A DNA stretch of 64,000 bases from Polyangia bacterium (GTDB lineage Bacteria > Myxococcota_A > Polyangia > JAHFDS01 > DATFWX01): NCBI GenBank assembly GCA_035258845.1, contig DATFWX010000218.1:17354-81353 (forward strand). The letters run 5' to 3'. The translations under genes and the position numbers were made by a program. The number at the start of each line of letters is the position of its first letter. Position 1 is the stretch's first letter. Under the pieces are notes generated by a model. It did not search any database. It saw nothing but the letters and a program-made list of their open reading frames with translations, and was not told where the DNA came from. Shown here piece after piece: positions 2,806-13,310 of the stretch.

Positions 2806-4587
2806 TCAAGGCAGCTGGATCTCGCGCACGCGCCGGTTGTAGAAGTCGCCCGCCACGACCCGCCGGCCGCTCACGGCCAGGCCCTCGACGTCAAAGAAAC
2901 GCGCGTCGCAGCCGTTGCCATCCGCGAATCGGATGGTGGTGGCGGTTCGCGCGGCGCCCGCCACCGGATCGGGGAGCGCGCTGCCCGCAGGGAGGAGATT
3001 GAGCGTGAAGCCGTCGTCGCTCATGAACAGCAGGGTGCCGGCGGCATCGACCGCGATGGCGGCCGGATTGCCGCGCGGGCCCAGCACGCTGGCCGCAAGA
3101 CGCGTCGTCACCGTTCCGGTGGTGGTGTCGATCTGCCGAATGCTGTTGCCGCTGAAATCGGTGACGTAGAGCGTGGTTCCATCCAGGGCGAGCCCCGAGG
3201 GCAACATGAAGCGGGCGCCCGTGCCCACGCCGTCGGTCGAGCCGAGCATGCCGTTGCCGGCCAGGGTCGTGGTCACGCCGGCCGGCGTGATGGCGCGAAC
3301 TCGAGCATTGCGCGAGTCGGCCACGTAGACGGTGCCGGCCGCGTCGACCGCAATGCCGAGCAGGCTGAGAAACCGAGCGCCCACTCCGGTGCCGTCCTGG
3401 AAGCCGCACGTGCTCGAGCCCGCGAGCGTCCTTACGGTTGCGTTCGCGTCGAGCGTGATGACGCTGCAGCCGGGGTCGAACAGCGCCACATAGAGCGTGC
3501 CCGCGCCGTTGATCGCGATGCCGGCCGGCGTTGCACCGACCCGGGCGAAGGTGGTGACGTCTCCGCTCGGCGTCACCCGCCGGATCTCCGAGTTGAAGGC
3601 GTCGGCCACGTAGGCGTCGCCGTTTGCCGCCAGTGCCACACCGGCTGGCGATCCGAACGTCGCGGTGGTGGCGTTGCCATCCAGGTTGCCCATGGCGCCG
3701 GTACCGGCCAACGTTCGCACCGAGACCTGCGAGCAGGTCGTGGTCCCGCCGTCAGAATTGGTGCCGCCGTCGGAGTTGGTGCCGCCGTCGGGCGACGGGA
3801 GCGGACACTGATTCTGGCTCGAGCTGAGCGCGGGCGGCGAATCAGCGGCCGGGCCGAACGTCGCTATCGCGAACGGCCGAACTCGGTAGCGGTAGGTCGT
3901 GAGCGCGCACGTCGTCCGGTCGATGAGCTGCATCTCGCCACCGCCGACCGAGGCGAACGGCCGGAAGTCGGTGACGTCACTTGCGCCCGCGAACCCGGGC
4001 ACGCTGGCGCGCTCGATGTCGTAGCGCTCGACGGCCCCGCCGCCACCCGCAAGCTGCCAGGTGACGAGCATGCTGCCGTCGCCTTGTGGGGTGGCGAGGA
4101 CGTGCACGACCGCCGACGGACAACCGAGTGGGCAGAAGATGATGCCATGCTGGCTGAACCCGTCCAGCGACGCCGCCACCGTGTGCGCGGCCGGATCGAC
4201 GGTGGGGACCGAGTCGAGCTGGTAGTGGCCGTCGTCGCGCAGCTTGGCGATCGCGTAGTGCGTATCGTCGAGCGCGGTTCCGTCGGCGCGTACGGTCATC
4301 GTCACCGGTTGCGCGAATGGGAGATGGTCCGGCTCCAGCGCATACCCGACCACGAGCGGCGCCACCGGCGCGACCGGCCGCACCGTGATGGCGGTGTCCG
4401 CGGACAGGGCGCCGGGCGGGAAGTCGAGCACGAGCCGGCCGTCGTCGAGAACGAGCCGGCCGCCGGCGGGGCCGATCACGGGGCCGCCTGCCGGGCTGCT
4501 GCAGGCAACCGGCCCGAGCGCGCACGCGAGCGCGAGCATAAGCGTGAGCGTGAGCGAGCGGGCGACAGTGAGCCAAAGTGATCGCAT
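2806..4587 (-). CDS. NHL-repeat lipoprotein (secreted)
   Basis: Signal peptide with lipobox-like LALACALGPVAC. Repeated NHL-type blades (GIAVDAAGTVYVADSRNARVRAI, LYVTDFSGNSIRQID etc.). GG(TNSD) low-complexity linker. Confidence 0.7.
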   Translation of the reverse strand: MRSLWLTVARSLTLTLMLALACALGPVACSSPAGGPVIGPAGGRLVLDDGRLVLDFPPGALSADTAITVRPVAPVAPLVVGYALEPDHLPFAQPVTMTVRADGTALDDTHYAIAKLRDDGHYQLDSVPTVDPAAHTVAASLDGFSQHGIIFCPLGCPSAVVHVLATPQGDGSMLVTWQLAGGGGAVERYDIERASVPGFAGASDVTDFRPFASVGGGEMQLIDRTTCALTTYRYRVRPFAIATFGPAADSPPALSSSQNQCPLPSPDGGTNSDGGTNSDGGTTTCSQVSVRTLAGTGAMGNLDGNATTATFGSPAGVALAANGDAYVADAFNSEIRRVTPSGDVTTFARVGATPAGIAINGAGTLYVALFDPGCSVITLDANATVRTLAGSSTCGFQDGTGVGARFLSLLGIAVDAAGTVYVADSRNARVRAITPAGVTTTLAGNGMLGSTDGVGTGARFMLPSGLALDGTTLYVTDFSGNSIRQIDTTTGTVTTRLAASVLGPRGNPAAIAVDAAGTLLFMSDDGFTLNLLPAGSALPDPVAGAARTATTIRFADGNGCDARFFDVEGLAVSGRRVVAGDFYNRRVREIQLP

Positions 4588-4930
4588 GCGCGGGGCCCAG
4601 AGCAAGCCGAGGGCCAGCCCGCTGTGCGCTCAGGGCATCGCAAGGGCGCGCTTCCTTTGGCCTGACCCAACCCGGCGCTCTGCCACGTCCCATGAGACGT
4701 CCACGCTCACCCATGAGACAGCTTCGGGGGCGCCAAACCGAACCGCGCGCGCGGGCACAAGTCAACGCGAGCGCGGGCGGGCCGCAGGCCGGCGATCCGG
4801 CTCACTGGACCACGCTGCGCAAGCTGCAGCGCCGGCTACGCGAGTTGCCGGCCTGCCGCAAGGGCCCTCTCTCTAGCGACGAAATCTCGTTACTCCGCCC
4901 TCTTGGCGGTGCTGCAACCGATCGAACCGA

Positions 4931-6247
4931 TTGGCACCCGAGTTGCTTGTCGCTCGCCCGTTGCGAAGCGCTCCCGCATTTGCGCTGGCCATCCTCCTGG
5001 CCATTCCGGCCCCGGCCTGGGCTGGGCCGCCCTCTGGCGCACCGCGCGTGCGCACCCGCAACGGGAGCAGCACACCCCGCGCACGCACGTACTTCGGGTA
5101 TCACGGCAAGGAGGTCCCCCACTACTACCATCCCGAAACCGGCGCGTTTCTCTATCGGCCCCCGCGCCCGCACGTGCTTCCGCTCGACAACGGCGACGAG
5201 CCGCTCCGTTTCGTCCGGCTCAACTTCCCGAGCTCCCAGAATCTGGAGGGGATGTTCCGGGAGGTGCTGACCGATTGGGTCCATGCGTTGACCAAGATCG
5301 GAAGCATGCGGCTCAAAATCCTGGTCAACGAGGGCGATCAGGCTCGGCTCGCCGCGCTGATGCAGGACCTGCCGCCGGGGCTGCGCGCGCGCATCGAACC
5401 GGTCCCGATCGCAGGCGACAACCACGTGCGGCCCTGGCCCCGCGACCCGTCGGTGCTCCTGGCGGGCGGCCGGAAGCTGCTCCTGCCGCGAGCGCGCATG
5501 CTTGGCCACGAGGAGGAGGAGCATGAGCATCCCCAGCGGATCGCGGACTACTTCGGGGTGGTCGAGAAGTACGCGCACGCCGCCGGGTTGCCGCTCGAAC
5601 GCTCGGCCTTCCGGTTCGAAGGCGGGAACATCCTGGTGGGTCGCCGCCACGTCTTCGTCGGCTCGGACATCGTTCAAAATGCCATGGCCGATTACGACAT
5701 CACGGAGGAGGAGGCAGTCGCCGCGCTCTCGCGCGAGTTTGGCAGACCCGTGCTCTCGATTGGCAGGCGTGATGCCCAACACCCGCGCTCCGAGCTACGC
5801 CAGCCCAGACAGCACATCGATCTCGCGATGGCCGTCGTGCGCGATCGCCGGAGCGGCCGGGAGGTTGTCCTGCTGGAATCGCCGAAGCTGGCGCGAGATC
5901 TACTGGGCGATCGCCTAGGGAGCGTTGAACCCGAAGGCGCGCTCTGGCGCGATGATGAGAATTCCGAGGCCGATTTCGATGCGGCCAGGCGGGCCCTGCG
6001 CGGTGAGGGCTACGAAGTCATCGACGTGCCGGGGCTGACCACCGGGTGGGCCAGCTCGCTCAACTATACCAACGCCGTGCTGGCCTCAGGTCACGCAATG
6101 ATTCCACAGCTCGATATCCCCGAGCTCGATGTTTATGCGGCCAACGTCTATCGCCGGCTGGGCTATGAGGTGATCCCGATGCGCTCGGCCCGTCGGTCGC
6201 TCGAGCTCAATGGCGGGCCCCGCTGCCTCGGCGAGCACTGCCGCTAA
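4931..6247 (+). CDS. secreted amidinotransferase-superfamily protein (agmatine/peptidyl-arginine deiminase-like)
   Basis: N-terminal signal peptide. C-terminal ...NYTNAVLASGHAMIPQL... NGGPRCLGEHC resembles the GGGxHC catalytic-Cys end of the Porphyromonas-type deiminase / guanidino-modifying fold. Assignment from motif resemblance only. Confidence 0.45.
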   Translation: MAPELLVARPLRSAPAFALAILLAIPAPAWAGPPSGAPRVRTRNGSSTPRARTYFGYHGKEVPHYYHPETGAFLYRPPRPHVLPLDNGDEPLRFVRLNFPSSQNLEGMFREVLTDWVHALTKIGSMRLKILVNEGDQARLAALMQDLPPGLRARIEPVPIAGDNHVRPWPRDPSVLLAGGRKLLLPRARMLGHEEEEHEHPQRIADYFGVVEKYAHAAGLPLERSAFRFEGGNILVGRRHVFVGSDIVQNAMADYDITEEEAVAALSREFGRPVLSIGRRDAQHPRSELRQPRQHIDLAMAVVRDRRSGREVVLLESPKLARDLLGDRLGSVEPEGALWRDDENSEADFDAARRALRGEGYEVIDVPGLTTGWASSLNYTNAVLASGHAMIPQLDIPELDVYAANVYRRLGYEVIPMRSARRSLELNGGPRCLGEHCR

Positions 6248-6662: not shown

Positions 6663-6947
6663 TTACCACAAGCCGTAATAAGCGCAGGCAGGTCCGTTCC
6701 AAGCCGCGTTTGCGGCGTCGTTCGCCACGCTCCACGTGGCGTCGTTCCAATCGCTTACGTTAACACCTGGGGCAAAGTCTTCTCCCGCATTTGCCGCGGC
6801 GCGCCACACCGATTCGGTGCAGGAGTAAGTCGCCAGGTTATCGAACGCCCAGTAGTTCCACACATCTAAACCTTTGCCTCCAACCACGCTCCCGAGCACC
6901 GATGCTTCGATCGAAACCAACCGCGCCTGCTTGTTCTTCTTGTTCAT
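6663..6947 (-). CDS. double-glycine-leader bacteriocin-like peptide precursor (copy 1)
   Basis: MNKKNKQARLVSIEASVLGSVVGG followed by a 70-aa Trp-rich core with 2 Cys. Hydrophobic residues at leader positions -4, -7, -12, -15 and GG at -2/-1 fit the class II / GG-leader consensus. Paralog of 7058..7342. Confidence 0.6.
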   Translation of the reverse strand: MNKKNKQARLVSIEASVLGSVVGGKGLDVWNYWAFDNLATYSCTESVWRAAANAGEDFAPGVNVSDWNDATWSVANDAANAAWNGPACAYYGLW

Positions 6948-7057: not shown

Positions 7058-7342
7058 TCACCACCAGCCGTAATTGGCGCAGGCAGGTCCGTTCCAAGCC
7101 GCGTATGCGGCGTCGTTCGCCACGCCCCACGTAGCTTCGTTCCAATCGCTTACGTTAACACCTGGGGCAAAGTCTTGTCCTGCATTTGCCCCGGCCTTCC
7201 ACACCGCTTCGTAGCAGGAGTTACTCGCCAGAAAAGCGAACGTCCATTCGTTCCACACATCTAAACCTCGGCCTCCAGCCACGCTCCCGAGCACCGATGC
7301 GTCGATCGAAGCCAACCGCGCCAGCTTGTTCTTCTTTTTCAT
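7058..7342 (-). CDS. double-glycine-leader bacteriocin-like peptide precursor (copy 2)
   Basis: MKKKNKLARLASIDASVLGSVAGG followed by a 70-aa Trp-rich core ending ..NGPACANYGWW. About 75% identical to copy 1. Confidence 0.6.
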   Translation of the reverse strand: MKKKNKLARLASIDASVLGSVAGGRGLDVWNEWTFAFLASNSCYEAVWKAGANAGQDFAPGVNVSDWNEATWGVANDAAYAAWNGPACANYGWW

Positions 7343-7383
7343 GATATGCCCTCAAAGCTCTGCCCTGAGCTGCCAGCCTGAAG

Positions 7384-7399
7384 TGCAGCTCGCGTGCCA
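7384..7399 (-). promoter_or_regulatory. sigma-54-type -24/-12 promoter element upstream of peptide copy 2
   Basis: Same TGGCACGCGAGCTGCA 16-mer as at 6989-7004, in the equivalent position relative to the ATG at 7342. Confidence 0.5.
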
Positions 7400-7452
7400 G
7401 AGGGCGAGAACGCCCGTAGGCGGATGTCAACGTCTGGTCGTGCGGTCGGTTC

Positions 7453-7479
7453 TCACCACCAGCCGTAATTGGCGCAGGC
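7453..7479 (-). pseudogene. 3' remnant (last 8 codons plus stop) of a third GG-leader peptide gene
   Basis: The rc reads ACANYGWW*, identical to the copy 2 C-terminus. The sequence 5' of it (in gene sense) is replaced by unrelated DNA that belongs to the integrase fragment. Confidence 0.5.
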
Positions 7480-8008
7480 ATGGTGTTCGCGATGCGCAGC
7501 AAGGAGCAAAGACGAGGTATCCGGGCGTGCAGCGAATCAACGACACAACGTGCCGAGTGCGGATCAAGTTGCGCGATCCGCGCAGCGGGAAAACGCGGGA
7601 GGTGGACAGGCTCGTCGAGGCGACGAGCGTCAGAGAAGCCGCAAGAAAACGCGCACTGCTCATGTCCGAGAAGCGCGCGGAAAACTCCGAGAGAAATTGG
7701 GGCCTCCGATCAGGGTGGGTATTCCGGTCGGACAACGGAACGCTGCGTGAGCCGAGTTCGCTTCGCAAGGCGTGGCGGGGCAGCCTCAAGGCGGCGAAGA
7801 TCGAGAAGCACTTCACCGTCCACGGGTTGCGGCGCACCTTCAACGACCTCGCAGGGCGTGCAGGCGTCGATGCGGTCGTGACGCGGGCGATCACGGCCAC
7901 GTGACCGAGCAGATGCGCGAGCACGATTCGACGGTCGGTCTGGATGAGAAGCAGGCCGCCGTGGCAAACGTTCTGCGGCTCGTTCCAGCGACGAATGTCG
8001 GGACTTAG
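7469..8008 (+). pseudogene. tyrosine recombinase (phage-type integrase), 5'-truncated and frameshifted
   Basis: Only the C-terminal catalytic half is present (...[50 protein letters not shown] / [15 protein letters not shown]...). The H-x-x-R and GH boxes are split between two frames near 7895. No N-terminal domain or start codon. Ends 63 nt before the tRNA-Gly. Confidence 0.6.
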
Positions 8009-8070: not shown

Positions 8071-8143
8071 GCGGGCTTAGCTCAGTTGGTAGAGCGTCGG
8101 CTTCCCAAGCCGAAGGTCGCCGGTTCGAGACCGGTAGCCCGCT
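8071..8143 (+). tRNA. tRNA-Gly (anticodon CCC)
   Basis: Hand-folded cloverleaf. Acceptor stem GCGGGCT/AGCCCGC (7 bp). D arm GCTC-AGTTGGTAG-GAGC. Anticodon stem TCGGC/GCCGA with loop TTCCCAA, giving anticodon CCC. T arm GCCGG-TTCGAGA-CCGGT. Discriminator T. No encoded CCA. Confidence 0.85.
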
Positions 8144-8875
8144 CCGCTGCGTGAGGCCCCGGGTTGACGCAACCTGGGCACCGCTCCAGGCGCCGGCCGC
8201 GCCCACGCCACCATCCGCCGTGGTCCTCGCTGTCGCGTGTCGACCCGTCGTCCAGCGGGGGTCCACCGTCCTTCTGATTCCCGGTGATCGACGCCGATTC
8301 GCATCCGGTCCAGCAGCCCGTCGCCATCGCCAGGCCGCAAAGAAGATTCGGCAAGCAGGGCCGAGGCATCTGCTTTCTGCCGTCAAGGCTAGCAGGAACC
8401 ACACCCACAGTCAGCGCCGCGGGCGGAGCGTCCGCTATGGGAAGCTGCGATCGTGTGGGCGGGGATGAGGGCGGCGGCGTACTTCAGCTCGTTGCTGATC
8501 TTCTTGCGTTCCTGCTCGAGCCGCTCGCGCCACTCCCGTTCCCGAGGAAAATCCCTCTGGTGAACGCCGCACCAGCCAGAACGAGGGGAATAGACGGGTC
8601 TTCATGAACGCGCGAGAGCATGATATATGTCACCTCTCGATCAGCTGCAATTGATGGCGTGACGGGGGCGTGGAGTGCGACATTCCTGTCCGATCGGCCT
8701 CGTTGGCCAGACGAAACGAGTGACGAGCTGCCCTGGAGGGTTCGATCAGACGTCCGGAACTCTGCTCGGATCACCCGAGCGTCTTTGTGGACGCCACGAT
8801 GGCCGAGCAGCAAGGGCTTCCCTGCGCAGAACTCTGCCCTCGCGGTCCTAACCATTTAGGGATGATTCCCATCGC

Positions 8876-9355: not shown

Positions 9356-10089
9356 GCCAGCCGTACCAGCGATCGCGCCCTCCCTCGTGCCCCTCCGATT
9401 TGCGTCTCGACCACTTCCTCCTCGGCGAGCTGGAGGAGCAGGAGACAGCCAGCCTCCGCGCTCATCTGGATAGCTGTTCACACTGCACCGCCCGCCTGGC
9501 CGCCATGGACTCGGAGCGCGAACAGTTTGGCAGACAGTTTGGCGCATGGGTGCCCAGCAAGCCGCGTGGAAGACGATTTCGATGGCGGTTGTGGCCGGTA
9601 TTGTCGCTCGCGGCGGCTGCTGCCGCGATCTTGCTGGTGGTCGAGCTGCGTCCCGAGCGCGGAGGCTTGCCCACCATCCGTGGAAAAGGGCAGAGTCGAC
9701 TGGAGTTCTATGTCCGCCACCAGGGAGTGGTCCGCAGAGGCTCGACGGGAGAAGCGGTGCTCGCAGGTGACGCACTCCGGTTTGCCTACTCCAGCGGCGC
9801 ACCCGGATACCTTGCCGTCATCAGCCTGGACGGCCGTGGACGCGCCACAGTCTACTATCCGCCCCAATCCACCATGATCCCGATCGCGGCCGGTGACGAC
9901 ATCCTCCTACCGGCGAGCACGATCTTGGACGACGCCCCCGGACCAGAGCAGATCTGGGGCGTGTTCTGCCGAGTACCGCTCGATCTCGAGCCGATCCGCG
10001 CTCGCGTGGAAAAAACACGAAGGGCGCCGACCCTGCCCGATGGCTGTCAAATCGACGCAACGTCGATCGAAAAGCGCACGTCGCGATGA
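9346..10089 (+). CDS. zinc-finger (ZAS-type) transmembrane anti-sigma factor
   Basis: N-terminal HLDSCSHC (HxxxCxxC) motif, then one TM helix (WPVLSLAAAAAAILLVV) and a periplasmic domain. Its start overlaps the sigma gene and its stop overlaps the next gene's ATG (ATGA). Confidence 0.7.
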   Translation: MRMSQPYQRSRPPSCPSDLRLDHFLLGELEEQETASLRAHLDSCSHCTARLAAMDSEREQFGRQFGAWVPSKPRGRRFRWRLWPVLSLAAAAAAILLVVELRPERGGLPTIRGKGQSRLEFYVRHQGVVRRGSTGEAVLAGDALRFAYSSGAPGYLAVISLDGRGRATVYYPPQSTMIPIAAGDDILLPASTILDDAPGPEQIWGVFCRVPLDLEPIRARVEKTRRAPTLPDGCQIDATSIEKRTSR

Positions 10090-11663
10090 GCCCTCACCGT
10101 CTTACGGTCACCCTACTCCCGGTCGCGGCCCTGGCTGTGTTCGAAGTGGCGGCGCAGGCGCGCGTGGAGCGCTACGCCGTACTGGTCGGCAACAATCACG
10201 GCACCGCGCAAGAGACGCCCCTTCGCTATGCCGAGGACGACGCGGTTCGCCTGAAGGATGTGCTCGAGCAGCTGGGGGGTTTTCCCGCAGAGAACCTGGT
10301 CCTTATCCGCAATGGAAGCGCCGACTCGCTCACGCGCGCTTTGATTGCGACCAATGATCGAATTCGCGCAACCACGAGCGGCGGCGGAAGAGCGGTCCTG
10401 TTCGTCTATTATTCGGGACATGCGGACGCTGAGGCGCTTCATCTGGGGGCGAGCCGCCTCGAGCTCAGGGAGCTCGAGCAGCTGGTTCGCGGCTCTGCGG
10501 CCGGCTTTCGCATCCTGGTGCTCGACGCTTGCCGTTCCGGCCGGCTCACCCACGTCAAGGGGGGAAAGCTGGCGCCACCTTTCGACGTCGAGCTCGAACG
10601 CACACTCGCCAGCGAGGGAACCGTTTTCCTGACCGCCAGCGCGGCAGGCGAGGACGCGCAGGAATCCGATGAGCTCGCCGCCTCGTTCTTTACCCACTAC
10701 TTCGTCTCGGGGCTGCTGGGTGCGGCGGATCAGGACGAAAATGGCGCGGTCACGCTCGACGAAGCGTACCGGTACGCCTACGAGAACACGCTCCGATCGA
10801 GCAGTCGAACGGCAGGGAACGTGCAGCACCCGACCTTCGAATACGACCTTCGGGGGCAAGGAACTGTCGTGGTGACCATGCCCGAGCGGGGACGGCCCGA
10901 CCGTGCAACCCTGTCGTTCCCGCCTGGACGGTTCTTTCTGGTCCTACAAGGCGATGCGGACGGGCGCGTGGTAGCTGAGCTGGGGGCGCGCGAGCGCACG
11001 CGGCGGCTCAGCGTTCGACCCGGCCGATACTTTCTTCGCAGCCGAGGTCCGACCAGCCTCCTCGAAGGAACCGTCACCGCGTCGGCAGGGCGGGAAACCC
11101 TCATCGATGAAAGCCGGCTGGTACGGGTCGAATACGGCCGGCTCGTCCGCAAGGGCGAGGGCATCCGCCGAGTGGCGCACGGACTCGAGGTCGGATACCA
11201 GGTAAGGACGCCACTCTACGAGGGAGCTTTTCTCTGCCAGGGCGGTTTCGTGGGCTACGTCCTCGAGCTCGCGGCCTTGAGCATCGAACCAAGGCTCGCG
11301 TTCTGTCGGGATACAATCGACGGCGTGAACATCGCAACCACCGCGTACGACGCTGATCTCGAGCTGCGGCTGACCCATGCTTGGGACATTGGGCGCTGGA
11401 CGCTGTCGCTGGGAGGCGGCGGCGGACTGGGCCTTCTGTATGAAACCTTCGTCATCCGGGGCAAGGCACCCGATCGGGCCAGTGCCGCCGCCCAGCTCGC
11501 GGGCGAAATTGGGGTTGGGCGTGATCTGGCGCGCCACCTTTACTGGCAATGCCGTGCTGAGGGGCTGCTGTTCCTCTTTGATCGCCAGGATGCCGAGGGC
11601 CGCGTCACGTTTGGATCTGCTCTTGCGGTCCGCGGCAGCCTGGGCCTGGGATGGCATTTTTGA
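10086..11663 (+). CDS. secreted caspase-domain (peptidase C14) protein with C-terminal beta-barrel-like domain
   Basis: Signal peptide. Caspase His/Cys dyad context (VLFVYYSGHADAEAL ... FRILVLDACRSGRL). The C-terminal ~270 aa show alternating hydrophobic beta-strand patterns and end ...SLGLGWHF, an aromatic-terminal outer-membrane beta-barrel signature. Confidence 0.65.
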   Translation: MSPHRLTVTLLPVAALAVFEVAAQARVERYAVLVGNNHGTAQETPLRYAEDDAVRLKDVLEQLGGFPAENLVLIRNGSADSLTRALIATNDRIRATTSGGGRAVLFVYYSGHADAEALHLGASRLELRELEQLVRGSAAGFRILVLDACRSGRLTHVKGGKLAPPFDVELERTLASEGTVFLTASAAGEDAQESDELAASFFTHYFVSGLLGAADQDENGAVTLDEAYRYAYENTLRSSSRTAGNVQHPTFEYDLRGQGTVVVTMPERGRPDRATLSFPPGRFFLVLQGDADGRVVAELGARERTRRLSVRPGRYFLRSRGPTSLLEGTVTASAGRETLIDESRLVRVEYGRLVRKGEGIRRVAHGLEVGYQVRTPLYEGAFLCQGGFVGYVLELAALSIEPRLAFCRDTIDGVNIATTAYDADLELRLTHAWDIGRWTLSLGGGGGLGLLYETFVIRGKAPDRASAAAQLAGEIGVGRDLARHLYWQCRAEGLLFLFDRQDAEGRVTFGSALAVRGSLGLGWHF

Positions 11664-11722
11664 TCTCCATGCCCAAAGGGAGGGATGGCGGTCCAAAGAG
11701 AAAAACGTTTCGGGAGGACGCC

Positions 11723-12748
11723 ATGCACGTTCGATGGAAGACGGTCCCGGTCATGCTCCTTTGTGGAGGCATCGCATGCGACGCGCAGACCGATCGGAGC
11801 TACCGGGGAGAAGTGTTGGCCACCATCCACGGCCGGATCACGAAAGCAGACGTGCCGACGCCGCCCGAGGTACGCGTCGCCCTGGCTTGGTATCAGCCTC
11901 AGGCGAGCTCATCGCAATGGCACCTGGTCACGCAAGATCAGGGGGTGCGCGCCCAGTTTCCAGCCAGTTTCACCTTGGACGTGACAGTTCTGCCGCCGGA
12001 GTCTGCATTCACTCATCCGAGCATGCATACCATCCAGACTTTCAATCTCGATCCCAACACCCGCTGGGCTTCTGGATTCCTGGTTGTCTACGAAGATGGG
12101 AACGGCAACCAGAGCCTGGATATCGTCTCGTCTGCCGACCAGACTTCACCCGATCGAATCCTCGCCGTGCCGTTCGATTACAACATCGAATATCTGGAAG
12201 GCACGCCATTCCCCAATACTGGGCTTGGAAAATACTTTCCCCACAGCGTGGGCTTCCAGCTGGTCAGACTGGCGCCCAACCAGGATCAACGCCCCGAGGA
12301 CTGCGAAGACCCGGTCGGTACCCACTATTACACCGCCTGCGATCCTGTGCCGGTTGGACCTCAAGAAGATTTGGCCGCGTCGACCGAGATCCCGATCGAG
12401 CTGACCGGATCGCCTGAACTGCAACATTACGCTTGCGACAGGTACTTCGGTGCAGGGGAGTGGGCGGATTGGTTTGTCTACGAGACCAAGAACAACATTC
12501 GGGATGGGTCCGAGCTCTGCGATCGGCCCGACTGCCCGTTTTGTGACAATCTCTTGGATGACAGTATGAGGTGTCCGATCGATCTTCCCCCGTCTGGCGC
12601 TCCGGTGACGTGCAGCCAGGATCGGCGAGCCTACGTCTACAAAACCTGCCAAATGGATGCTTCGCTGTGTGGAACCACAGTCTGCCATTTTGGTCACTGG
12701 GGCCTTGCTTCTACCGATCCGATTCCGGCGGGATGGCCTTGCCTCTGA
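11723..12748 (+). CDS. Cys-rich secreted lipoprotein (hypothetical)
   Basis: MHVRWKTVPVMLLCGGIAC signal/lipobox. About 14 Cys concentrated in the C-terminal half (CDRPDCPFCDN, CQMDASLCGTTVCHF). Third codon positions are noticeably less G/C-rich than in neighbouring genes. Confidence 0.5.
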   Translation: MHVRWKTVPVMLLCGGIACDAQTDRSYRGEVLATIHGRITKADVPTPPEVRVALAWYQPQASSSQWHLVTQDQGVRAQFPASFTLDVTVLPPESAFTHPSMHTIQTFNLDPNTRWASGFLVVYEDGNGNQSLDIVSSADQTSPDRILAVPFDYNIEYLEGTPFPNTGLGKYFPHSVGFQLVRLAPNQDQRPEDCEDPVGTHYYTACDPVPVGPQEDLAASTEIPIELTGSPELQHYACDRYFGAGEWADWFVYETKNNIRDGSELCDRPDCPFCDNLLDDSMRCPIDLPPSGAPVTCSQDRRAYVYKTCQMDASLCGTTVCHFGHWGLASTDPIPAGWPCL

Positions 12749-13070: not shown

Positions 13071-13310
13071 TCAGCCGATCCCCCAGCCGCCGTTCCCGTT
13101 TTCGTCCGGTACGACGTCAGTCGGGTCGAAATTGAACCACGGCCCATCGATAGGCAAATTCTCAGGCCACCACTCGCCATTTAGGTTTCTGTAGCCCCAG
13201 TCGCCGTCGATTTCGACGCCGCCGCCGTAAGGGTACAGGTCTGCACCCCCGCGTACGTTTTGGAGCTCCGAGACCGAAAGCTCTTGTTGCGTCCACGTCG
13301 TTTCTTTCAT
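13071..13310 (-). CDS. double-glycine-leader, Gly/Trp-rich bacteriocin-like peptide precursor
   Basis: MKETTWTQQELSVSELQNVRGG matches the LSxxELxxVxGG leader consensus, with GG immediately before a 57-aa Gly/Trp/Asp-rich core (GGGVEIDGDWGYRNLNGEWW..GNGGWGIG). Strong RBS GGAGGGAG 7 nt upstream of the ATG. Confidence 0.6.
   Translation of the reverse strand: MKETTWTQQELSVSELQNVRGGADLYPYGGGVEIDGDWGYRNLNGEWWPENLPIDGPWFNFDPTDVVPDENGNGGWGIG

Follow-up and report, generated by a model that had tools for sequence, protein, structure and literature searches.

What does a caspase-type protease do when it is joined to what looks like an outer-membrane protein, and what would it cut there? The question is raised by one gene, here called the caspase-barrel gene (Table 1), in a 64,000-nucleotide stretch of contig DATFWX010000218.1 from a Polyangia bacterium (the whole stretch is hereafter termed the window), for which an earlier note proposed a periplasm-facing caspase tethered to the outer membrane and, as a guess, a part in the cleavage of an anti-sigma factor. 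To our knowledge, bacterial metacaspases are abundant, and a substrate or role is known for hardly any of them; likewise, we know of no inactivation route for most myxobacterial extracytoplasmic function (ECF) anti-sigma factors. Our analysis points with high confidence to an exported caspase carried on its own predicted outer-membrane barrel. It further leads us to propose, at a probability of roughly 0.4, that this outer-membrane-tethered metacaspase would act as the site-1 protease of the anti-sigma factor encoded in the same cassette.

A metacaspase joined to a predicted outer-membrane barrel

To describe the protein, we combined profile searches and structure prediction with family alignments; here and below, alignments comprise 30 or 81 family sequences and comparisons of loci rest on 80 of 539 loci. 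Pfam Peptidase_C14 (PF00656) matched residues 29-217 at 38.5 bits against a cut-off of 21.4, and AlphaFold2 placed a caspase domain at residues 27-245, in agreement with the C14 domain first put at about residues 30-250. The predicted structure has the caspase-hemoglobinase fold, with Foldseek matches that include caspase-3 and caspase-6, and the catalytic His112 and Cys149 are invariant in the 30-sequence alignment and kept in all 81 family members. The closest curated model, NCBIfam NF047832 (EACC1-associated caspase), scored 73.9 bits against a cut-off of 140, which places the protein outside that family, and a phmmer search of the whole protein against PDB gave no match at E<=1. The family profile, unlike the single sequence, reaches metacaspase-4 and metacaspase-1 in PDB, and this alignment sets D52 opposite the C-x-N-D Asp of both. 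Together with S110 (two residues before His112) and D147 (two before Cys149), D52 belongs to the S1-pocket residues that are invariant in the 30-sequence alignment. In TbMCA2, the S1 pocket consists of C92, D95, S156/159 and D211, and its two Asp residues accommodate basic substrates (PMC6426788); D52 and D147 supply a pair equivalent to D95 and D211. Since the metacaspase S1 residues are conserved, the protease would be predicted to cut after Lys or Arg. By these sequence features the protein is a Peptidase C14 on the metacaspase side. It lacks the arrangement of TPR-CHAT proteases (a CHAT domain after TPR repeats, as in DdvA, Csx29 and separase), and PADLOC returned only a generic caspase match (E 1e-5), with no sign of a known defence system.

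The remaining ~270 residues had been read as one segment with outer-membrane hallmarks. They are indeed rich in beta-strands, but they fall into two modules, ~100 residues forming a separate sandwich. In the full-length AlphaFold2 model (pLDDT 80.7), the caspase domain is followed by a sandwich at residues 250-345, a disordered stretch at 351-359 and eight long strands at 363-523. The strands that had been quoted as examples divide accordingly: LEVGYQVRT is barrel strand 1 and WTLSLGG...FVIRG is strand 5, whereas RYFLRSRG (residues 314-321) lies within the sandwich and LVRVEYGRL (345-353) spans the end of the sandwich into the disordered linker. Within this linker, R352, L353, R355, K356 and G357 are invariant, and pLDDT stays below 50 at 351-359; the motif may serve for release or cleavage, or may make contact close to the membrane.

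Modelled alone (residues 351-525), the C-terminal module forms a closed antiparallel barrel of eight strands that reach a membrane-spanning length of 20-22 residues (pLDDT 92.1, pTM 0.83), so that the structure prediction called for in the earlier note returned a barrel and not a soluble non-barrel fold. Foldseek matched it to OmpA, OmpX, NspA and Ail. The figures listed in the fold comparison were 17.9 for NspA, 17.3 for a Legionella outer-membrane barrel, 17.1 for the OprF N-domain, 16.7 for OmpA, 16.4 for Thermus TtoA, 16.1 for OmpW and 14.5 for PagL, and about 8-10 for soluble eight-stranded barrels (avidins, YceI, lipocalin-like proteins). Furthermore, the window protein ends in S-L-G-L-G-W-H-F, which fits the beta-signal of outer-membrane proteins (OMPs) and bears out the terminal aromatic residue as an insertion signature. 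Among 81 genome-derived family members, 77 keep a hydrophobic or aromatic last residue (L in 34, F in 28, W in 14, I in 1), and the ends of the other four look truncated or frameshifted; the consensus in the 30-sequence alignment is L-G-x-G-x-R-[FLW]. Alternate strand positions differ across the family, one face being rich in L/V/A/F (mean Kyte-Doolittle +1.19) and the other in G/A/S/R/T/E/D (-0.55), which is, as judged from composition, the pattern seen in small OMPs whose lumen is polar. In even-stranded OMP barrels such as OmpA and OmpX, both chain ends lie on the same side of the membrane; eight being an even number, both ends of this barrel, and hence the N-terminal protease, are predicted to be periplasmic. 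Together with the signal peptide described below, this supports the periplasm-facing placement originally suggested. As a separate observation, C384 (11235-11237) and C407 (11304-11306) are invariant; they occupy the adjacent barrel strands 2 and 3, close to what is presumably the extracellular end, and may form a disulfide, unusual for small OMPs.

Neither the sandwich nor the barrel matched any Pfam family at E<=10 (searched with the C-terminal 175, 107 and 277 residues, 351-525 and 249-525). This lack of any Pfam OMP family for the barrel sequence would suit a soluble periplasmic barrel of the lipocalin, avidin or YceI type; a further variant would make the caspase a surface-exposed passenger. 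We consider both very improbable. Strands of up to 20-22 residues, a lumen face rich in Gly, Ser, Arg, Glu and Asp, and a terminal beta-signal conserved in 77 of 81 members argue against a soluble barrel, and no passenger-export function is known for eight-stranded barrels, type Va autotransporters using 12 strands. The type Va layout itself, a 12-stranded C-terminal barrel with an alpha-helical linker through its pore, is absent here. The barrel is thus modelled as an OmpX/NspA/OmpA-N fold that belongs to no described sequence family.

The reading frame of 525 aa on the plus strand coincides exactly with the one first reported, in DNA of 63-65% G+C. A hydrophobic N-terminus and a small-x-small site precede a conserved [VI]ER[YF]A in 29 of the 30 aligned homologs; the sole homolog without a signal peptide, P0002, has a called start too short to carry one. 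A 100% identical database protein (P0001, 508 aa) is called from the GTG of Val18, 17 codons further in, and thereby loses the signal peptide. We favour the ATG at 10086 because it overlaps the stop codon of the upstream anti-sigma gene by 4 nt and because the orthologs carry signal peptides; the shorter start was probably miscalled when the source was annotated.

More than 2,300 database proteins match the caspase-barrel protein. The best 120 matches are almost all 497-541 aa long, with 49-61% identity and 81-100% query coverage, and their named sources include Sorangium, Polyangium, Minicystis, Kofleriaceae and other Myxococcota. A phmmer search of 1.84 billion cluster representatives (50% identity) with residues 249-525 gave 529 matches, of which the full-length ones measure about 500-550 aa and carry the module at about 230-530, and the shorter ones look like fragments. 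No other architecture bearing the C-terminal module was recognised among these 529, a comparison that leaves aside a few longer outliers. A scan of one genome per species found 539 caspase-barrel loci, some genomes carrying two copies. The 80 retrieved loci are all from Myxococcota (Sorangium, Polyangium, Minicystis, Archangium, Anaeromyxobacter, Nannocystaceae, Labilithrix and Kofleriaceae). The orthologs keep the whole C-terminal module, whose absence from them had been named as grounds for dropping the idea. The architecture had been called rare; 539 loci in species-representative genomes and 529 clusters at 50% identity contradict this, and by its sequence distribution it is, as far as seen, confined to Myxococcota yet common there.

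A conserved sigma factor cassette with matching lysine-glycine motifs

The caspase-barrel gene follows genes for an ECF sigma factor and an anti-sigma factor, the sigma stop overlapping the anti-sigma start and the anti-sigma stop overlapping the caspase start by 4 nt each. The sigma factor has sigma-2 and sigma-4 regions only and adjoins an anti-sigma factor with an H-x3-C-x2-C signature and one transmembrane (TM) helix, as in pairs of an ECF sigma factor with a zinc-binding anti-sigma factor. The zf-HC2 domain of the latter scored 23.8 bits against a cut-off of 22.2, its orthologs keep C13, H38, C42 and C45 (CHCC, like DdvA), the TM helix corresponds to a hydrophobic segment at about residues 80-100, and a C206/C232 pair is invariant in the periplasmic domain of the orthologs. 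With DUF4384 (PF14326), the window anti-sigma factor scored 16.5 bits against a gathering score of 27; matches at E<=0.01 were obtained for 14 of 23 orthologs (the best at 2e-8), and the orthologous group therefore belongs to this family, though the window protein alone falls below threshold. Homology between this domain and the sandwich of the caspase-barrel protein was considered and dropped (hhalign probability 21% over 39 columns).

Downstream of the caspase-barrel gene lies a lipoprotein gene, whose start we place at 11723 and not at the 11651 of the list of open reading frames (ORFs) because of a ribosome-binding site (RBS), GGGAGGA, and a lipobox (MHVRWKTVPVMLLCGGIAC/DAQTD, the slash marking the cleavage point). 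A lipobox of the kind L-[LA]-A-A-C, with [DG]-x-Q after it, is found in most orthologs, and no match to the lipoprotein was found in Pfam, NCBIfam or PADLOC. The gene is homologous to the one ahead of the sigma gene in Sorangium and Minicystis (tblastn E 1e-7). In five homolog loci inspected individually, the order is sigma, anti-sigma, caspase-barrel (the sigma gene being uncalled in L003, where the contig starts close by), and in three of the five a fourth gene of about 240-250 aa without Pfam match stands ahead of sigma. Across the retrieved loci, an anti-sigma gene immediately precedes the caspase gene in all 80 and a sigma gene is present in 74; five of the other six are cut by contig ends and the sixth, L024, looks degenerate. 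In this locus (Sorangium sp. So ce388, 3792-5000), no sigma gene was detected and the N-terminal frame of the anti-sigma gene is scrambled, probably marking a decayed cassette copy. The lipoprotein gene occurs in 70 of 80 loci, upstream in 69 and downstream, as in the window, in L065; nine of the ten loci without it are cut by contig ends. As annotated from these sequences, the Myxococcota-wide cassette is composed of the lipoprotein, the ECF sigma factor, the anti-sigma factor (zinc-binding domain, TM helix, DUF4384) and the caspase-barrel protein. No second copy was found within the 64-kb window.

Lysines are scarce in both partners, with averages of 6.8 in the caspase and 4.1 in the anti-sigma factor. 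Across 81 sequences, four Lys columns nevertheless show 100% conservation: K158 and K356 of the caspase, K112 and K241 of the anti-sigma factor. K158 lies with G159 and G160 nine residues after Cys149, a position that corresponds to the intersubunit loop of caspases, and the loop is a candidate self-maturation site. In the anti-sigma factor, R-x-K-G is present in 76 of 80 proteins; it follows a variable-length spacer, 7-29 residues past the TM helix, and stands at the start of the folded periplasmic domain, where K112-G113 would be the predicted site-1 cleavage site. The K158, K356 and K112 sites share Lys at P1, Gly at P1' and a nearby Arg, and both caspase sites sit in segments with pLDDT below 50 (for K158, residues 152-177). 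The fourth lysine, K241 (10072-10074), falls near the C-terminus of the anti-sigma factor, in the tail sequence ...S-I-E-K-R-T.

These observations can be joined into a pathway. The protein would be exported through its Sec signal peptide, and the barrel (the C-terminal 165 residues) presumably inserted in the outer membrane by the machinery for beta-barrel assembly (BAM) through the terminal beta-signal, so that a short flexible basic linker would suspend the metacaspase and the sandwich in the periplasm. The tethered protease would first mature by cutting its own R-V-K/G-G loop and then, on some signal, would cut the anti-sigma factor at R-x-K/G, 7-29 residues outside the inner membrane. This cut would remove the DUF4384 domain and leave a short periplasmic stub, an intramembrane site-2 protease would finish the anti-sigma factor and free the sigma factor, and the freed sigma factor would raise expression of the cassette through a conserved motif (see below). 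The lipoprotein is a candidate sensor or protease inhibitor gating the cut, and the R-K-G linker could permit the protease to leave its anchor. The guess of anti-sigma cleavage made at the outset is consistent with all of our findings, including the adjoining anti-sigma gene in 80 of 80 loci and the shared basic-Gly motif. Its appeal is that the cassette pairs a protease of predicted location (the periplasmic face of the outer membrane) and predicted Lys/Arg specificity with a candidate substrate site, K112/G113, and that it is conserved in hundreds of species, among them culturable Sorangium, Archangium, Polyangium, Minicystis and Labilithrix. If the proposal is true, DUF4384 would gain a function as a sensor or blocking domain removable by a caspase.

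Several points weigh against anti-sigma cleavage. Given that the barrel matches no Pfam or OMP sequence family, its membrane assignment rests on predicted fold, composition and C-terminal signal. The K158 loop of the window protein reads T-H-V-K-G-G rather than T-R-V-K-G-G, and the likeness among the basic-Gly sites rests on four residues. R-x-K-G may be no more than a structural element, for example where the first DUF4384 strand begins, or may serve as a pseudo-substrate. The reach of the protease is doubtful on the predicted geometry, a wide periplasm and a 10-residue linker having to be set against a site 7-29 residues above the inner membrane. Finally, co-transcription is equally compatible with the protease as an output of the sigma factor.

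The pseudo-substrate alternative holds that the anti-sigma R-x-K-G is a docking strand that inhibits the protease, with the lipoprotein as the real substrate in another version. An inhibitor bound in the active site would fit the same motif data, and DUF4384 is elsewhere fused directly to caspases and other proteases. We nevertheless find it quite improbable, since an anti-sigma factor with a cytoplasmic, zinc-binding and sigma-binding domain is normally the regulated party and since the basic-Gly motif, when sought in the lipoprotein, was not conserved there.

A variant of site-1 cleavage concerns the signal. The protease is itself a predicted BAM substrate, with a beta-signal and an eight-stranded barrel, and an invariant disordered basic linker lies exactly between its soluble part and the barrel; a working BAM might then lock the protease in the outer membrane, and failed insertion or R-K-G self-cleavage would free it to cut R-x-K-G. 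The sensing of unassembled OMP C-termini by the sigma-E/DegS pathway offers an analogy. Unassembled OMPs are, on the other hand, normally degraded quickly, and the idea is pure inference, for the sequence gives nothing to tell it from constitutive tethering; we rate such an assembly sensor as improbable. A broader extension of the cleavage proposal, possible yet decidedly tentative, is a trans-envelope relay in which the outer-membrane metacaspase, as a dedicated site-1 protease at R-x-K/G gated by the lipoprotein and/or by R-K/G release, would report the state of the outer membrane or of BAM to the ECF sigma factor across Myxococcota.

A promoter-like motif and the protease as a possible output

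A pair-of-words count on upstream regions revealed a recurrent GTGCC-N15-17-CGGTC, from which a position weight matrix (PWM) was built with seven sites upstream of orthologous cassettes, a procedure that is partly circular for the seed genera. When each locus of ~11 kb was scanned whole, the best plus-strand match in 43 of 70 loci fell upstream of the lipoprotein gene by at most 600 nt. In 16 more it fell ~2.1 kb upstream, ahead of an extra beta-propeller-like lipoprotein gene. The (G/T)TGCC...CGCGGTCC pattern recurs in lineages that had not contributed to the matrix. In the window, the motif ahead of the sigma gene is the only PWM match above 14 bits on either strand, with its -10-like CGGTC at 8843-8847, 29 nt before the sigma GTG. 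We infer that the motif is an ECF-type promoter read by the sigma factor of the cassette itself; its conservation ahead of the cassette implies that the cassette is probably autoregulated.

Such autoregulation also enters the main rival explanation, in which the protease is an output of the sigma operon and acts on other envelope substrates once the sigma factor has been switched on by another route, while DUF4384 itself senses the signal; candidate roles are protein turnover, remodelling of the cell wall or outer membrane, developmental lysis and programmed cell death. The genes appear to be co-transcribed behind the motif, so protease levels would rise with sigma activity, and a role in cell death was proposed for myxobacterial metacaspases in sigma operons in the relevant passages of an earlier survey (PMC3501461). 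An output role would leave three observations unexplained: the invariant, scarce lysines in matching basic-Gly contexts of both proteins, the recurrence of DUF4384 with caspase-type proteases in unrelated systems, and the constant adjacency of the anti-sigma gene with overlapping codons. We therefore judge it rather unlikely and continue to favour cleavage of the anti-sigma factor.

The motif also bears on gene order. Because it precedes the lipoprotein gene in other genomes and is found again in the caspase-lipoprotein gap of the window, it has moved along with the relocated gene. Just upstream of the cassette lie a C-terminal fragment of a tyrosine recombinase (HGLRRTF..., 7326-7904, plus strand) and a tRNA-Gly(CCC) gene (8071-8145, plus strand), and G+C is 0.63-0.65 over about 6-18 kb compared with about 0.70 in the flanks. 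An integration event or a rearrangement may have had its breakpoint here, and this could account for the position of the lipoprotein gene downstream of the caspase instead of upstream of sigma. The extra large lipoprotein gene occurs near the cassette in some lineages: in L018 (858-3020, plus strand) it encodes 720 aa of beta-propeller-like sequence, and its equivalent in L003 (3767-6691, plus strand; 974 aa) carries Pfam Beta_propel PF09826. An NCBIfam and Pfam search on the accessory beta-propeller protein yielded nothing. Since the motif stands ahead of this gene in Myxococcaceae/Anaeromyxobacter-type loci, it looks like an optional fifth member of the cassette.

Table 1 Features of the caspase-barrel cassette, in window coordinates
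Feature	Position	Strand	Basis or remark
Promoter-like motif CTGCG-N16-CGGTCC ahead of sigma gene	8820-8851	+	PWM 18.0 bits
ECF sigma factor, 159 aa	8876-9355	+	Sigma70_r2 E 3.8e-16, Sigma70_r4_2 E 1.3e-07, TIGR02937 75 bits; GTG start
Anti-sigma factor, 245 aa	9352-10089	+	zf-HC2, one TM helix, DUF4384-type periplasmic domain
Anti-sigma R110-G-K112-G113	9679-9690	+	Invariant K-G; predicted site-1 cleavage site
Caspase-barrel gene	10086-11663	+	525-aa ORF: signal peptide, metacaspase domain, beta-sandwich, linker, 8-stranded barrel
Predicted Sec-type signal peptide, residues 1-25 (...VAAQA/RVERY)	10086-10160	+	No lipobox; small-x-small site in homologs
Metacaspase-like C14 domain, residues 27-245	10164-10820	+	AlphaFold2 and Pfam Peptidase_C14
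Catalytic His112	10419-10421	+	YSGHAD context, invariant
Catalytic Cys149	10530-10532	+	DACRSG context, invariant
K158-G159-G160	10557-10565	+	Loop G-A-L-T-R-V-K-G-G, nine residues after Cys149, all invariant
Beta-sandwich, residues 250-345	10833-11120	+	AlphaFold2 strands 250-339, pLDDT about 80-93
Linker motif R352-L-V-R-K356-G357	11139-11156	+	Family consensus Y-A-R-L-V-R-K-G; between sandwich and barrel
Predicted 8-stranded outer-membrane beta-barrel, residues 363-525	11172-11660	+	Predicted fold, composition, beta-signal
Beta-signal S-L-G-L-G-W-H-F	11637-11660	+	Pattern polar-x-G-x-x-aromatic-x-aromatic
Second motif copy ATGCC-N15-CGGTC	11669-11693	+	One mismatch; 59-nt caspase-lipoprotein gap, 30 nt before ATG
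Cassette lipoprotein, 341 aa	11723-12748	+	Lipobox GGIAC/DAQTD, Cys19 at 11777-11779, RBS GGGAGGA

Relation to known systems and other features of the window

The layout suggested here was first likened to FecA/FecR-type circuits, a comparison that holds for the three compartments (outer-membrane protein, inner-membrane anti-sigma factor, ECF sigma factor) but not for the parts. Neither the 22-stranded TonB-dependent transducer with its N-terminal signalling domain nor a FecR domain is present (TonB_dep_Rec, Plug, STN and FecR gave no matches, and the barrel has eight strands), and the relay would be proteolysis by the outer-membrane protein itself. In the DegS-RseA-RseP-sigma E pathway of E. 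coli, DegS is an HtrA serine protease anchored in the inner membrane and activated by unassembled OMP C-termini. In the proposed pathway, too, a single-pass anti-sigma factor would be cut at site 1 in the periplasm, a few tens of residues from the membrane, and then at site 2, and there would be a link to OMPs; the difference is that the window protease is a cysteine metacaspase and itself a predicted OMP. The small OMPs NspA, OmpX, Ail, OmpW and PagL, as well as the two-domain OMPs OmpA and OprF with their periplasmic domain, have no detectable sequence relationship to the window barrel. Compared with OmpA, the order is reversed, the soluble part being N-terminal to the barrel, and a protease takes the place of the peptidoglycan-binding domain.

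Two systems already join caspase-like proteases to ECF sigma factors. In craspase (type III-E Cas7-11), the TPR-CHAT protease Csx29 cuts Csx30, which is bound to Csx31 and RpoE. As would be the case here, the protein cut by a caspase-like protease is the partner of an ECF-type sigma factor, and DUF4384 includes some C-terminal domains of Csx30; caspase-DUF4384 fusions occur in other systems as well. Craspase differs in being cytoplasmic, RNA-guided, of CHAT type and without membrane components. The DdvS/DdvA pair of Myxococcus xanthus is likewise a myxobacterial ECF pair, its anti-sigma factor having a CHCC zinc-binding domain and one TM helix. The periplasmic caspase-like CHAT domain of DdvA, a caspase-fold His-Cys protease, has been proposed to make the first cut, by autocleavage, before intramembrane proteolysis by RseP (PMC11506125). 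In DdvA, the protease domain lies within the anti-sigma polypeptide, is of TPR-CHAT type and acts in trans within a dimer, whereas the window cassette has a separate C14 metacaspase-type protein with a predicted outer-membrane anchor and an anti-sigma factor that bears DUF4384. If anti-sigma cleavage is true, the cassette would be a third independent caspase-type control of ECF sigma factors beside DdvA and craspase. It would also join a cysteine protease to an anchor of OmpX type, for which we found no description in the literature searched. If only the architecture is true, it would still define a large uncharacterised OMP family outside Pfam coverage.

The nearest published observation is a 2012 survey by Asplund-Samuelsson et al., whose passages on the subject describe operons in which sigma-70-family genes accompany four of the five M. 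xanthus metacaspases, as well as homologs from Anaeromyxobacter, Haliangium and Sorangium, and suggest a link to developmental cell death (PMC3501461). These operons are probably the same as, or a sister set to, the present cassette. The word 'barrel' occurs zero times in the searched part of that text, and its passages on sigma-metacaspase operons are silent on an anti-sigma factor, a lipoprotein, cleavage motifs and a promoter. The main text of the ECF reclassification paper mentions neither caspases nor DUF4384, and a review notes CHAT proteins near ECF54. Literature searches on barrel- or outer-membrane-anchored bacterial caspases and on experiments with myxobacterial metacaspases returned only the 2012 survey, with incomplete coverage, so that absence is no proof. 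Regulated proteolysis of ECF anti-sigma factors is known; what would be new, if the model holds, is that the protease carries its own barrel as an outer-membrane anchor.

Some further observations concern the surroundings of the cassette. In the locus of P0005 (8050-13566), a stand-alone DUF4384 protein, a fusion of a Ser/Thr kinase with FGE-sulfatase, and another Peptidase_C14 protein lie within a few kb of the cassette, which hints at a wider network of DUF4384, kinases and caspases in these genomes. Within the window, two paralogous ORFs of 94 aa (6663-6947 and 7058-7342, both on the minus strand) begin with MNKKNKQARLVSIEASVLGSVVGG and MKKKNKLARLASIDASVLGSVAGG; with double-glycine-like leaders followed by a ~70-aa core rich in Trp, Asn and Ala, they look, from sequence, like precursors of bacteriocins or of ribosomally synthesized and post-translationally modified peptides (RiPPs). 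Their only NCBIfam match was a weak one to TIGR04139 'peptide modification target' (E 0.073), and Pfam gave none. A small ORF at 13071-13307 (minus strand) also has a double-glycine-like leader (MKETTWTQQELSVSELQNVRGG/ADLYPYGG...) and gave no family match. Finally, the gene at 4931-6247 (plus strand) encodes a secreted protein of 438 aa with a sub-threshold match to PAD_porph, the Porphyromonas-type peptidyl-arginine/agmatine deiminase family (21.6 bits against 25).

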